From sequence record NC_054902.1: a stretch of DNA of 64,000 nt; one strand, written 5' to 3'. Below, one piece after another: positions 5,727-29,230 of this stretch. The notes beneath the pieces are model-generated. The model saw only the letters and a program-made list of their open reading frames with translations, made no database searches and was not told the origin of the DNA. The position numbers and the translations under genes were made by a program. The stretch is from Enterobacteria phage Aplg8. The stretch's first letter is position 1. Every line of letters begins with the position of its first letter.

Positions 5727-5756
5727 ATAGTACCACGGAAGAACAGTCTTGTAAAC
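5727..5756 (-). promoter_or_regulatory. early promoter
   Basis: GTTTAC (5756..5751) - 18 bp - TACTAT (5732..5727) on minus strand. Confidence 0.55.
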
Positions 5757-24148: not shown

Positions 24149-24339
24149 TTTGAATGATCTATAATTAATTTTAAATCTTCTTCACTGACAAAAATTTCGT
24201 CAGGACCTTCTATAACTTCAACCATACGAAGTTGATTAGTTAAGAGCTCACATACGAGCTCCTTGTTATAATCTTTAAATAGCTGGTCAATACGTTTCTT
24301 GCGGGCTTTCTTAAGCTGGCGTTTATTTAAACGAGCCAT
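24145..24339 (-). CDS. hypothetical protein (soc.2 position)
   Basis: 64-aa ORF. Confidence 0.5.
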   Translation of the reverse strand: MARLNKRQLKKARKKRIDQLFKDYNKELVCELLTNQLRMVEVIEGPDEIFVSEEDLKLIIDHSK

Positions 24340-24857
24340 TAATAGCCTCTGTCTTGACGAGCGAAGTTTTCAGCATTTTTCAGATAATAAAGTTTAAATA
24401 TTTCTTCAGCTGACATTCCAAGAGCAATGAATTTATTCATGAAAAAGTGAAATTGATCAATCAGTTCAAATTTAATTTCAAGTTGATCTTCAGGAGATAA
24501 ATCTTGAATTTTCTTGGATTGCATTTCAGAATAACGTTTCTTCCAAGGTTTCCATACAGCAGAAGCTTCTTTTTCACCATTACTCATACCACCAAGAGAA
24601 GTATATAGCTCGCGAGTTTCGTCTGCGATATAATCGTCTTGGTTTCGCAGCCAAGCAAGAACTTCTCCTGCAGTTTCAAGTGAATCAGGATGACGATTTG
24701 TTTCTGGTTTATCATTAGCCAAACGAATCTGTAAATGCCGCTGCATATCAAGCATAACCTGCAGTGGGTCAATATTGTGCATAATATTCTCAGCATATGC
24801 ACGATTTGCTTTATCAACACCTTCGATCAAATGAGCACATTCATTAAAGTAAGCCAT
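24339..24857 (-). CDS. 56: gp56 dCTPase/dUTPase (MazG-like NTP pyrophosphatase)
   Basis: 172 codons from MAYFNECAHLIEG; MazG-like motifs; C-terminus ...YYLKNAENFARQDRGY. Confidence 0.85.
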   Translation of the reverse strand: MAYFNECAHLIEGVDKANRAYAENIMHNIDPLQVMLDMQRHLQIRLANDKPETNRHPDSLETAGEVLAWLRNQDDYIADETRELYTSLGGMSNGEKEASAVWKPWKKRYSEMQSKKIQDLSPEDQLEIKFELIDQFHFFMNKFIALGMSAEEIFKLYYLKNAENFARQDRGY

Positions 24858-24891
24858 TATTTTTCCTTTCAATTCATGGGTTAGTAGATTA

Positions 24892-24917
24892 ATTATACAA
24901 TAAATATATAAAGCAAT
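24892..24917 (-). promoter_or_regulatory. MotA-dependent middle promoter for gene 56
   Basis: minus-strand ATTGCTTTA (perfect MotA box) - 11 bp - TATAAT. Confidence 0.65.
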
Positions 24918-24928
24918 AAGGAGGACAT

Positions 24929-25129
24929 ATGATACAAAAATTAATGGCACTTGTTAATGCCATAAAAGGTAATAAGAAACGTATAGCTTTTACTATTTCT
25001 GCTATGGTAGGAATTTTACTCTGGAACTTTATTTTATCACCTGTTGCAATTGCACATGGTATTAATATTCCAGTAGTTACTCTTGATACATTCGTAGATT
25101 TAGCATTTGCTTTAGTTGGGTTAATTTAA
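24929..25129 (+). CDS. small hydrophobic protein (66 aa), plus-strand
   Basis: AAGGAGG SD 5 nt before ATG; AATAAATA late-promoter-like box at 24897..24904; two hydrophobic segments; fills otherwise non-coding 56-61 gap. Confidence 0.5.
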   Translation: MIQKLMALVNAIKGNKKRIAFTISAMVGILLWNFILSPVAIAHGINIPVVTLDTFVDLAFALVGLI

Positions 25130-26154
25130 ATCTTAGCATATTTAGATAACCTCATTTTAGCCATCAACCCCTGGGCAATATTATTTTTCATATATTCCAT
25201 AATTTGTTCAGGGGTTGCACCTTCCTTTCTAATCATATCATTAACATCTTTTGATTTCCAGGGAGATTTATCCCAAAACATAACTCTTTCTCCTGCATCA
25301 ACTAATTTAGTCATTCGTTTGATAGTGTCAGGATGACGAGGTTCATTATCTAAAACCCACACACGTCTATCTTTAAATGGAACAACTTCTAGGTCTAATT
25401 GACCACCCGTAATAGCTATACCATTTTCAATAAAAAGTGAATCTATAGGTCCTTCTAGAACATATACATCACCATCTTTAACTCGTTCGACTCCATAGAT
25501 TTTTGTTGCTTCAGGATAAGCTTTGATGGTGATATATTTTTGGGGAGCATCTTTCTTTAATGCACGTCCTTGAAAAGACTCAGCTTTTCCATTAGCATTA
25601 TAAATTGGAATAACAAGACGAGGCTCAGAAATTTCCTTTTTGTATGTTCCCGGTGCTATGCTATTAACTAATTTAGGCCATTCGGTTGTAAACCAAAGAT
25701 ATTTCCATTTATCCTTTGGAATACAACGAGCTTTTACATATTTTATAATTGGATGGTCTTCCGCCAGTTTATCTAATCTAACACATGACGGAAGAGATTT
25801 AATTATTTTCTTCTCAGGTTGCTTAGGAAGTTCTTTAGGTTTTTCTACTGGACGACTTTTACCTTTTTCTTTTCTTATTTCAAAGATATACTCACGATAT
25901 AAATCAGGTTCAAACTCCTTTAAATATATTCCGATTGGTGCATGATAATTACAGTTATAACAATGAATATTTCCTTCATTATTATCACCATAATACCATC
26001 CACGAGCTTTATTCTGGTCGGTTTTTGAATCTCCACAAACAGGACATCTAAACCGCAATTTAAAAGTTGAACTATTATTTACTTGTGTGAATTTAGGTAA
26101 ATGAGCTAATGCACGGTATGCAAACTCATTATCAATCCAAGGTATTGATGACAT
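25126..26154 (-). CDS. 61: gp61 DNA primase
   Basis: 342 aa (T4 gp61 length); N-terminal zinc ribbon CPVCGD...CYNC; Toprim-like core. Confidence 0.9.
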   Translation of the reverse strand: MSSIPWIDNEFAYRALAHLPKFTQVNNSSTFKLRFRCPVCGDSKTDQNKARGWYYGDNNEGNIHCYNCNYHAPIGIYLKEFEPDLYREYIFEIRKEKGKSRPVEKPKELPKQPEKKIIKSLPSCVRLDKLAEDHPIIKYVKARCIPKDKWKYLWFTTEWPKLVNSIAPGTYKKEISEPRLVIPIYNANGKAESFQGRALKKDAPQKYITIKAYPEATKIYGVERVKDGDVYVLEGPIDSLFIENGIAITGGQLDLEVVPFKDRRVWVLDNEPRHPDTIKRMTKLVDAGERVMFWDKSPWKSKDVNDMIRKEGATPEQIMEYMKNNIAQGLMAKMRLSKYAKI

Positions 26155-26156
26155 TT

Positions 26157-26321
26157 TTACTCTTCTTTTTCTTTAGATTCCTCTTTCTTCTTTTTAGGAA
26201 TCTGTTCAGGACCTTTATTTACTACAGCACCTGACGTTGTTCCAGTAGAGATATTTTCAGGATTACCGCCTGAATCTCCAGCGACCATATCTTCTTTAAT
26301 AAATTCTTTATATGTTTTCAT
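26157..26321 (-). CDS. hypothetical protein (61.1 position), 54 aa
   Basis: hand-translated MKTYKEFIKEDMVAGDSGGNPEN...KKKKEESKEKEE. Confidence 0.45.
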   Translation of the reverse strand: MKTYKEFIKEDMVAGDSGGNPENISTGTTSGAVVNKGPEQIPKKKKEESKEKEE

Positions 26322-26322
26322 A

Positions 26323-26949
26323 TTAACCTCTATTCATAAAAGCATTAAAAATTTGGTCATCAATAGAAACATTTACTTTAGACTGTTTTTCAGATGGCAA
26401 TTCATATCCACATATTACAATTTTGTGATCAATATCAAAATATACAGAAGCAATATGATTAATGATGTTTTCAGTAAAGTCTAAATCAACATCAATATCT
26501 TTTTGACCACAGCCCAAAGGATAAATAATGCGAGTAATTCGATTATCTTTAACAAAGATTCCACCGACATACTCTGTACTGCGTTTAAAGTCTACACGCC
26601 GACGAAATGAAAAATATTCAGGCTCTTTATGAGCTCGGCTCATAGGACACAACGAATAACTAGAATAAGAGATGTCAAATCCTACGCCTTCGATATGAGC
26701 CAAAGTGTCATGATTAAACCAATTATAATCGTACGCCAAATCCATTAGATTATAATATGTAAAAGGCACCGGATTAACATCATTAGTCACAAGCATGTAA
26801 TTAGCAACTGCTATAATTTCATTGTTTTTAACGAATACAAACCGTGATTGATGCGAATGACCTGGACCCGCGTTTTCACGATTAATGATATAACACTGGG
26901 CACCTTTATATTTGTATGTATCTTTGCACTTGTGCATTTGATAGAGCAT
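26323..26949 (-). CDS. hypothetical protein at the T4 61.2 position (possibly AdfA-like anti-DarT factor)
   Basis: 208-aa ORF; assignment positional only. Confidence 0.55.
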   Translation of the reverse strand: MLYQMHKCKDTYKYKGAQCYIINRENAGPGHSHQSRFVFVKNNEIIAVANYMLVTNDVNPVPFTYYNLMDLAYDYNWFNHDTLAHIEGVGFDISYSSYSLCPMSRAHKEPEYFSFRRRVDFKRSTEYVGGIFVKDNRITRIIYPLGCGQKDIDVDLDFTENIINHIASVYFDIDHKIVICGYELPSEKQSKVNVSIDDQIFNAFMNRG

Positions 26950-27242
26950 TATTCACCTACCACTTCAGCGATGATATTTTTGTTATTAAAGTTTTTATCG
27001 CAATACAGAACATAATTATACTGCATTACACCACCAGACTTAAGTTGTTTTTGCACTTCAGCTTTCATTTCAGGACGATCACGCTCAACGATATTCATAA
27101 TATCCGCTTCAATTTGAGTTTCAACTTCAGTCTGATCCGCAGTCATAGACCATTCGCACAAATCTTTATCATAACCTGCCATAGCAGGCTGAGCAGCGCA
27201 AGAAGCTAAAGCAAAAATTGTAGCAAAGATAAATTTTTTCAT
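26949..27242 (-). CDS. sp: Sp (spackle) periplasmic protein
   Basis: 97 aa with N-terminal signal peptide MKKFIFATIFALASCAAQPAMA; matches T4 Sp size and position. Confidence 0.75.
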   Translation of the reverse strand: MKKFIFATIFALASCAAQPAMAGYDKDLCEWSMTADQTEVETQIEADIMNIVERDRPEMKAEVQKQLKSGGVMQYNYVLYCDKNFNNKNIIAEVVGE

Positions 27243-27270
27243 GATAATCTCCTCAGTAGTTTATGTTTAT

Positions 27271-27300
27271 ATAGTATCTCAATTTCCAACAAAAGTAAAC
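27271..27300 (-). promoter_or_regulatory. early promoter
   Basis: GTTTAC (27300..27295) - 18 bp - TACTAT (27276..27271). Confidence 0.55.
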
Positions 27301-27302
27301 AG

Positions 27303-27557
27303 TTATTTTAAAATTTCTGCGTAATCACATGTTACAAACTGTTTCTCTAGCTTGACGATTTTACGAAAGTATCTTTTACATTGACGAATCTGTCGCTTAG
27401 TAGGGCGCACAGCAAACTTAATAAATTCCACTCGACCAAATGGAGGGCTTTCTTCTGATGGAATATCTAACACCAATTCCCACGTATCTGCAATAAGTGC
27501 TTTGAATTGCGTATTTTTCCTGACGTTATACGGAGTAGGTTTAAATAAAACAATATG
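27303..27557 (-). CDS. hypothetical protein at the T4 61.4 position (possibly TifA-like)
   Basis: 84 aa from MHIVLFKPT with GAGGA SD; lies between sp and dmd. Confidence 0.5.
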   Translation of the reverse strand, partial: HIVLFKPTPYNVRKNTQFKALIADTWELVLDIPSEESPPFGRVEFIKFAVRPTKRQIRQCKRYFRKIVKLEKQFVTCDYAEILK

Positions 27558-27561
27558 CATA

Positions 27562-27744
27562 TTATCCTCGGCAATCCACTTCACATACTTTCTTGTCATC
27601 AATGAAAGCTTTAACTAATGCTTTATTAACTTCAGCATATTGAGTAGTAGCCCATTGAACGTCATCTTTCATCATTGTGGTTTCTTTAGTAAACATGCTT
27701 TCATTCTTAAACCACCCCATAAAAACTACCTTTACCAATTCCAT
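27562..27744 (-). CDS. dmd: Dmd, antitoxin against host RnlA/LsoA
   Basis: 60 aa, MELVKVVFMGWFKNESMFTKE...; size and position immediately below gene 41 match T4 dmd. Confidence 0.8.
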   Translation of the reverse strand: MELVKVVFMGWFKNESMFTKETTMMKDDVQWATTQYAEVNKALVKAFIDDKKVCEVDCRG

Positions 27745-27773: not shown

Positions 27774-27803
27774 ACTATACCATAGTCTTGTCAGCTTGTA
27801 AAC
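27774..27803 (-). promoter_or_regulatory. early promoter overlapping gene 41 stop
   Basis: GTTTAC (27803..27798) - 18 bp - TATAGT (27779..27774). Confidence 0.55.
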
Positions 27804-29230
27804 TAAAATTTTAATTCATTCGCCAAAGCATCTAACTGAGCTCGAGTGGATTCATTTCTTTGATAGCGATTCTGCTCAGCCTGAATCTGTTGTGAACCTG
27901 CTACTTCGTTCACTTCAGTTGGAGTAGAATCTTGTTCAATTTCTACCCATTTCTGATTTCCTTTTTGAACACCCATCAAAAACTTATTCCATTTGTTCTT
28001 ATCGCCATATCGTGATTTGATTTGCTTAATGAGTTGTTGTTCAGCAGCTGCTAGCTCCTCGGTTTCAATGACCGCAAGCATAAAATCAGCTGTTGCTGGA
28101 AGACCAGCAGATTCTGCAATATCGCTCATGTTAACATCAGAAGAGTCCCAAGCTTGTTTACCGACCTGTGCTGCAGTCCAAAGAACAGTTTCGGTTTCAA
28201 CAGCAAGAGCACGCAATTCCTCTGCAATAGCTTTAACAGTTGTGTAACTATTTTCTGAATAAACTCGGATGCGACAAGATTTACAAATACCTAGATAGTC
28301 GACAATAATGATTGTTGGAACAAAATTCTTTTTGAGCTTCAATTCATTCAAGAGAGACCTGAATGTATTAGCGTCTGCTCCACCAGTAGGATACTGTTTA
28401 ACGATTAAACGACCGAGGGTAGATTTCTCACGCCATTTTTCCATTTTTCCTTTATACTCGGCGTAAGAAATATGTCCATCATCAATATCGTCAAGAGAAA
28501 CATCGAGCATATTAGCATCAATACGTTTAGCACAGACTTCTTCTGCCATTTCCATGGAGATATAAAGAACGTTATGACCAAGCTGCAAATAATCTGCTGC
28601 TAATGAACAAAGTCCTAATGATTTACCAACGTTAACGCCAGCCATTAAAACGTTCAGTGTTCCAGTCTCAGCTCCGCCTTTAGTAATTTTGTTTAGAATT
28701 CTGAGTTTAAATGGAACCTTACGAGCTTTATTCATATAAGATAGCCAACGCGCTTCGTAGTCATCCATCCAATCATGACCAACGTAACTATCAAATGAAA
28801 TTGATAATGCTTGGCGCATGATGTCAGGAATAGCACCAACATCCGGCATTTTCTTATTTCGTTTTTCCGGAGGAAGTTCAGCATTAGTTTGAATTTCGAT
28901 TATTTTAGACGTAGCATTAAACATCGCCCTTTGCTGAACATATTTTTCTGTTTCTTTTACTAACCAACTGTGGTCTTCCGGAGAATCAGCTAGTTTTGAA
29001 ATAAGTGTTTTTACACCAGAATATTCTGTTTCAGTAAATGAACTATTTTCTAATGCAACATTTAACGCATTAATAGATGGAACGCTATGGTACTCATTAA
29101 CATGAGATTTAATTAATTTGAATGTATTTTTAGCTGGACCACTTTCAAAATATTCTGAATCCATATATGGCCAAACTTTTGAAAAATAAGCTTGATCAAA
29201 TATAAGATGAGAAAGAATAATTTCTACCAC
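27803..29230 (-). CDS. 41: gp41 replicative DNA helicase (DnaB-like)
   Basis: 475 aa (T4 gp41 length); Walker A GVNVGKS; DnaB-family architecture. Confidence 0.92.
   Translation of the reverse strand: MVEIILSHLIFDQAYFSKVWPYMDSEYFESGPAKNTFKLIKSHVNEYHSVPSINALNVALENSSFTETEYSGVKTLISKLADSPEDHSWLVKETEKYVQQRAMFNATSKIIEIQTNAELPPEKRNKKMPDVGAIPDIMRQALSISFDSYVGHDWMDDYEARWLSYMNKARKVPFKLRILNKITKGGAETGTLNVLMAGVNVGKSLGLCSLAADYLQLGHNVLYISMEMAEEVCAKRIDANMLDVSLDDIDDGHISYAEYKGKMEKWREKSTLGRLIVKQYPTGGADANTFRSLLNELKLKKNFVPTIIIVDYLGICKSCRIRVYSENSYTTVKAIAEELRALAVETETVLWTAAQVGKQAWDSSDVNMSDIAESAGLPATADFMLAVIETEELAAAEQQLIKQIKSRYGDKNKWNKFLMGVQKGNQKWVEIEQDSTPTEVNEVAGSQQIQAEQNRYQRNESTRAQLDALANELKF

Follow-up and report, generated by a model that had tools for sequence, protein, structure and literature searches.

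In Enterobacteria phage Aplg8, a run of small genes separates helicase gene 41 from primase gene 61, and the question raised by this locus is whether these genes together make up a counter-defence cluster, which of them would act against host defence systems, and from which promoters they would be transcribed. The analysis covered the whole stretch of 64,000 nucleotides taken from sequence record NC_054902.1, hereafter called the window. Four ORFs (dmd, 61.4, sp, and 61.2) sit between the gene 41 helicase and the gene 61 primase on the minus strand, and the compact cluster between primase and helicase that had been proposed from the letters alone (the sequence-only reading) was indeed found in this place. 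The ends of the interval 26323-27744 coincide with the adfA stop and the dmd ATG, and a fifth small gene, 61.1, lies just outside it. In the order of transcription, all on the minus strand, the genes are 41, dmd, 61.4, sp, 61.2, 61.1, and 61, and the features of the locus are as follows.

27803-29230, minus strand: gene 41, replicative helicase, 475 aa (DnaB_C, E 3.1e-17; synteny with T4 and RB18)
27774-27803, minus strand: predicted early promoter upstream of dmd, GTTTACA-17-TATAGT with TG (T4-type motif)
27562-27744, minus strand: dmd (61.5), 60 aa (Pfam Dmd PF17587, T4 identity, PDB 5hy3_B)
27303-27560, minus strand: tifA (61.4), 85 aa (Pfam DUF7279, T4 TifA identity)
27271-27300, minus strand: predicted early promoter upstream of sp, GTTTACT-17-TACTAT (T4-type motif)
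26949-27242, minus strand: sp (61.3), 97 aa (Pfam T4_Spackle, T4 identity, PDB 6x6o)
26323-26949, minus strand: adfA (61.2), 208 aa (Pfam AdfA PF23813, T4 identity)
26157-26321, minus strand: 61.1, 54 aa (phrog_1823; 96% identical to T4)
25126-26154, minus strand: gene 61, primase, 342 aa (weak DNAG_N Pfam match; synteny with T4 and RB18)

We regard the locus as very probably a T4-type accessory-gene block between genes 41 and 61 of Tequatrovirus, carrying two early promoters. Judged by its sequence, the window is a T4-like Tequatrovirus genome, and the 24-kb stretch around the block reaches 97.7% as the highest identity to any phage in the collection searched. The 1.75-kb block itself was matched in 561 phage records, of which 328 match 80% or more of its length, and the best DNA match was RB18 (98.6%). 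All five small proteins (those of dmd, tifA, sp, adfA, and 61.1) exactly match deposited phage proteins, and the identical forms of AdfA, TifA, and Sp are found together in Enterobacteria phage Aplg8. Relative to T4, about 37 changes in the five small genes are synonymous and 11 residues differ, which points to purifying selection, and by these comparisons the ORFs of the block are not chance ORFs. A search of the five small proteins against PADLOC and NCBIfam found nothing useful.

Downstream of primase gene 61, where T4 has a dam methyltransferase gene, the window has none. In its place is a hydrophobic 66-aa ORF (24929-25129, plus strand) without a Pfam match, whose position is that of an RB18 ORF annotated as similar to RB69ORF029w / RB32ORF030w, and this plus-strand ORF is followed by gene 56 (dCTPase; 24339-24950, minus strand).

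The two genes that had been recognised with confidence from the beginning, dmd and sp, were confirmed by Pfam, by 98-99% identity to T4, and by matches to solved structures. Dmd matches PF17587 over its full length (E 1.8e-45) and is 98% identical to the T4 protein, with one change, I22T (from T4 to the window). Its residues 1-60 match PDB entry 5hy3_B, 'Antitoxin Dmd' (9.6e-37), and 5hy3 is a solved structure of Dmd in complex with its toxin. According to a previous study, Dmd directly inhibits the RnlA toxin (and LsoA), and RnlAB is protective only against T4 lacking dmd (PMC9391042).

Spackle, the product of sp, matches T4_Spackle PF25676 over its full length (E 1.3e-44) and PDB entry 6x6o at 8e-62, and is 99% identical to its T4 counterpart, with K53E as the change from T4 to the window. 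A signal peptide fits this protein, since the mature chain in 7cn6 aligns from residue 23. Spackle has been reported to be periplasmic and to inhibit the gp5 lysozyme domain of superinfecting phage (PMC7677548). It is a superinfection exclusion protein, acting phage against phage, and is not a counter-defence factor.

The ORF at the 61.4 position had been assigned to TifA by position and described as 84 aa long. The assignment was borne out, while the length was corrected to 85 aa, counted from the ATG at 27560, which has GAGGA in front of it as a Shine-Dalgarno sequence and makes the ORF exactly as long as T4 gp61.4. A TTG-started 99-aa version of this ORF was rejected as an artefact that overlaps dmd. 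The 85-aa protein matches Pfam DUF7279 over its full length (PF23945; E 2.6e-20, 72.5 bits against a cut-off of 24.5), and 84 of its 85 residues are identical to T4 gp61.4/TifA; its identity to RB69 TifA is 56%, the figure also given for T4 and RB69 TifA in the TifA papers. A PDB sequence search with TifA found nothing. The sole residue difference from T4, A35S (from T4 to the window), is located immediately ahead of a loop that, by prediction, faces ToxN.

According to previous studies, TifA is a protein inhibitor, not an RNA. It was found to bind RNA and to co-precipitate with ToxN, which it traps in a large ribonucleoprotein complex, to a great extent together with 16S rRNA. Residues P53/T54 together with K55/R56/R59 of the C-terminal basic helix were needed for RNA binding, ToxN co-precipitation, and ToxN rescue (PMC10853763). 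P53, T54, K55, R56, and R59 are all present in the window TifA and invariant in a four-way alignment, and R52 is present as well. Position 41 is Phe, as in T4, and Ser41 or His41 was reported to give stronger ToxN inhibition than Phe41. By analogy with T4, the window TifA with its Phe41 is predicted to inhibit ToxN weakly and to be insufficient against high-copy toxIN.

At the nucleotide level, seven of the eight tifA differences from T4 are synonymous. Six of the eight, all synonymous, cluster within about 30 nt (27420-27460, minus strand, codons ~51-61), at or beside codons for the basic RNA-binding helix. This cluster looks like a small recombination patch that would be under strong protein-level constraint.

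The 208-aa ORF at the 61.2 position, which the sequence-only reading had connected with AdfA, matches Pfam AdfA PF23813 with an E-value of 1.5e-136 (453 bits against a cut-off of 27), and the match is full length, residues 1-208 corresponding to profile positions 1-211 of 211. The protein is 97% identical to T4 gp61.2 and 71% to RB69 AdfA (gp61.2), so it can be named AdfA. Absence of similarity to AdfA and TifA had been put forward as the outcome that would speak against positional orthology; the comparison was run, and it returned clear similarity instead. The changes from T4 to the window are L62P, D66Y, N82T, V84A, F147C, and P190S. The possibility that L62/D66 of T4 AdfA represent a T4-peculiar allele was dropped; D66, N82, and V84 are present in other phages.

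As to the activity of AdfA, one position deserves attention. AdfA was defined by escape mutants of RB69. In that phage, DarT1 binding is absent from the protein with Arg164 and strong in the R164H escape variant, the substitution switching on both DarT1 binding and neutralisation; natural homologues with His at the R164 site are of the neutralising type (PMC11257639). In the window AdfA, His165 aligns with RB69 R164, and His occupies this column in 14 of the 16 aligned sequences, which were the AdfA of the window itself plus 15 cluster representatives of the family. The window AdfA is accordingly of the His type at this site, and is predicted to represent the DarT1-binding allele.

An AlphaFold2 model of AdfA built from the 16-sequence alignment was mediocre (pLDDT 71, pTM 0.55). 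A Foldseek comparison of this model with the PDB gave no match at E <= 0.001, with all TM-scores below 0.25, and a PDB sequence search found no solved relative. Both results agree with the published description of AdfA as a protein without known homologues, and structural analogy for AdfA cannot be claimed from this model.

How well the name 'counter-defence cluster' suits these genes can now be answered: it fits three of the four. Of the earlier claim, the part concerning Dmd, TifA, and AdfA stands, and the part concerning Sp does not, as Spackle serves superinfection exclusion. The stricter term 'anti-TA island', under which all members neutralise toxin-antitoxin systems, fits Dmd, TifA, and AdfA and does not fit Sp. 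This term comes from a previous study (Srikant, Guegler and Laub 2022, PMC9391042), whose authors proposed it as a possible description of dmd, tifA, and adfA and regarded the genes nearby as candidate antitoxins; in a full-text literature search, the phrase was found only in the work of Srikant et al. 2022. The cluster is already known, and the present description adds nothing beyond PMC9391042, PMC10853763, and PMC11825919. Its main value lies in annotation: in most deposited relatives, the homologues of adfA and tifA are still called 'hypothetical protein', and the names AdfA and TifA can confidently be given to them. Moreover, the allele states at AdfA His165 and TifA Phe41 allow predictions.

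In the proposed course of events, two early promoters would be active right after infection, one transcribing dmd-tifA as the first unit and the other sp-adfA-61.1 as the second, which continues into primase gene 61. Dmd would take the place of the unstable antitoxins of RnlA and LsoA and bind these RNase toxins. The basic C-terminal helix of TifA would bind RNA, and the ToxN endoribonuclease would be trapped in an inactive ribonucleoprotein complex. Spackle would be exported to the periplasm and block the gp5 lysozyme of superinfecting T-even phages, and AdfA would bind the DarT1 ADP-ribosyltransferase toxin. The gene identities, key residues, gene junctions, and promoter motifs that enter this scheme were read directly from the DNA of the window, and we infer the activities against RnlA, ToxN, and DarT1 from the published T4 (97-99% identical) and RB69 (56-71%) proteins.

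It could be argued that the genes are true orthologues but that the block is not a counter-defence unit in Aplg8, AdfA and TifA being weak or mis-tuned alleles, protection coming from other loci (adfN in the case of DarTG1), and the clustering reflecting no more than shared early expression. We consider this unlikely, although several findings lend it some weight. In T4, deletion of adfA had no effect on DarTG1 resistance, even in the absence of adfN, and adfN (gene 30.3) was the effective factor against DarTG1; the authors proposed that AdfA of the T4 type is adapted to a different DarT (PMC11257639). Single-copy T4 tifA overcomes chromosomal toxIN and fails against plasmid-borne toxIN, by which wild-type T4 is blocked despite its tifA, with amplification of dmd-tifA as the sole escape; and Sp has a different purpose altogether. 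On the other hand, T4 tifA mutants lose plating efficiency about 100-fold on chromosomal toxIN, RB69 is rescued on DarTG1 cells when T4 AdfA is provided in trans (PMC11257639), and Dmd is required against RnlAB, so that each of the three factors has a demonstrated activity in T4 or RB69. The same limits regarding toxIN and DarTG1 are to be expected in Aplg8, because its TifA is one residue away from that of T4 and its AdfA is 97% identical. A counter-defence role for Dmd, TifA, and AdfA is still the reading we prefer.

The promoters are where the earlier description had to be changed, as it gave each gene an early promoter of its own, and two motifs were found, before dmd and before sp, not four. 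The T4 early-promoter motif GTTTAC-N17-19-TANNNT was scanned for in the whole window on both strands. It occurs at 20 sites compared with 2.6 expected, 18 of the 20 on the minus strand, and no shuffle reached 20. Within the block, it is found only at 27774-27803, inside the 58-nt gap before dmd, and at 27271-27300, inside the 60-nt gap before sp. Both of these promoter-bearing intergenic gaps are 100% identical to T4, and the two promoters are predicted from motif matches identical to those of T4. Several of the early-promoter sites in the window share near-identical spacers, GTTTACAAGAC(T/C)GTTC(T/C)TC(C/T)(G/A)TGGTACTAT, at 5727, 33490, and 59918.

The gene junctions are tight. The tifA ATG lies 1 nt past the dmd stop (TAATATG), the adfA ATG overlaps the sp stop (TAATG), and the adfA/61.1 and 61.1/61 junctions read TAA-T-ATG and TAA-AA-ATG, respectively. 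The 1-nt or overlapping junctions leave no room for a promoter there. Since the promoter motif is present only before dmd and sp and the junctions are tight or overlapping, the block would comprise two predicted transcription units, dmd-tifA and sp-adfA-61.1-61. In T4, dmd-tifA was likewise described as a two-gene operon whose early promoter precedes dmd, and another promoter was mentioned downstream of tifA (PMC9391042).

It is very improbable that each of the four genes nevertheless has an early promoter of its own, the internal ones being hidden inside the upstream coding sequences. A generic sigma-70 scan does list TTGAAA-16-TATTAT inside sp (27124-27097) and TCGTCA-18-TAAAAT inside tifA, but it returned 20 sites against 18.4 expected by chance and carries no signal, and the T4 early motif was used in its place for this reason. 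Only dmd and sp are preceded by the T4-specific motif; junctions of 1 nt or with an overlap suggest that the genes are co-transcribed and translationally coupled; and the published location of the tifA promoter is upstream of dmd. Two promoters serving two units thus remain the arrangement we favour.

The second of these units would also include 61.1, for which the literature search found no functional study and Pfam gave no match even at lax thresholds. Residues 2-38 of gp61.1 align with residues 57-93 of the T4 major capsid protein gp23, with 16 of 37 positions identical (43%; pairwise E 1e-08). The Smith-Waterman score was 80, compared with 29 +/- 4.5 for shuffled queries, and none of 2000 shuffles reached 80. 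RB69 gp61.1 matches the same gp23 segment (residues 57-93), and some public records automatically name gp61.1 homologues 'major capsid domain-containing protein'. In the alignment, gp23 Glu65, after which we take gp23 to be cleaved at maturation, corresponds to gp61.1 Glu10, and the [ILVM]-x-E pattern upstream is kept in all 13 gp61.1 homologues aligned. By alignment, gp61.1 is a small homologue of gp23 57-93 that spans the maturation cleavage motif. One conjecture, to which we give only a slim chance, is that gp61.1 might be a capsid-protein mimic, acting early as a decoy or competitor for whatever recognises the N-terminal part of gp23; candidates for such a recogniser could be a capsid-sensing host defence or the prohead protease. 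If true, the mimic would be a further member of the island with a different mechanism.

Among known systems, the 41-61 interval of T4 shares with the block the order, lengths, and junctions of the genes as well as the two intergenic promoter regions. The DNA of the two blocks is collinear without any indel, with 1701 of 1751 nt identical (50 differences), and the block proteins are 96-99% identical. Most of the residues in which the window differs from T4 are the commoner alleles among relatives. In RB18 (MH553563), AdfA is identical to that of the window except for the last residue, and RB18 carries an extra 118-aa ORF between adfA and 61.1, which both the window and T4 lack. This extra ORF (MH553563, 3030-3386; phrog_4122) is a paralogue of the C-terminal half of AdfA, with 35% identity over 106 columns (E 1e-08) and the same SIDDQIFNAFMNRG tail. 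It was found in RB18/RB32-type phages, and an insertion of about 358 bp is present in about half of the top 30 DNA matches listed.

RB69, a Mosigvirus, is a more distant case. As in the window, dmd and tifA are adjacent and sp and adfA are neighbours, all between genes 41 and 61, whereas the proteins are only 56-71% identical to those of the window. RB69 has imm and imm.1 inserted between tifA and sp (NC_004928, 4012-4690), by which both exclusion functions come to lie side by side, imm/imm.1 beside sp. Its 41-61 interval also has four extra small ORFs, and together with imm and imm.1 these mark the interval as a plastic accessory-gene region. Such plasticity in T-even phages, including the 118-aa ORF of RB18, makes position alone weak evidence, yet the idea that the 208-aa and 85-aa ORFs are unrelated fillers merely occupying the 61.2 and 61.4 slots has practically no chance of being right, refuted as it is by 97% identity to T4 gp61.2, 84 of 85 residues shared with T4 gp61.4, and the full-length Pfam AdfA match (E 1.5e-136).

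Accepting the two ORFs as orthologues of AdfA and TifA, the window and RB69 differ in the alleles they carry. The Arg164 of RB69 AdfA marks the form without DarT1 binding; the window AdfA has His at this site. RB69 TifA has His41, lacks the C-terminal 15 residues, and has been reported as the more potent allele, whereas the window TifA has Phe41.
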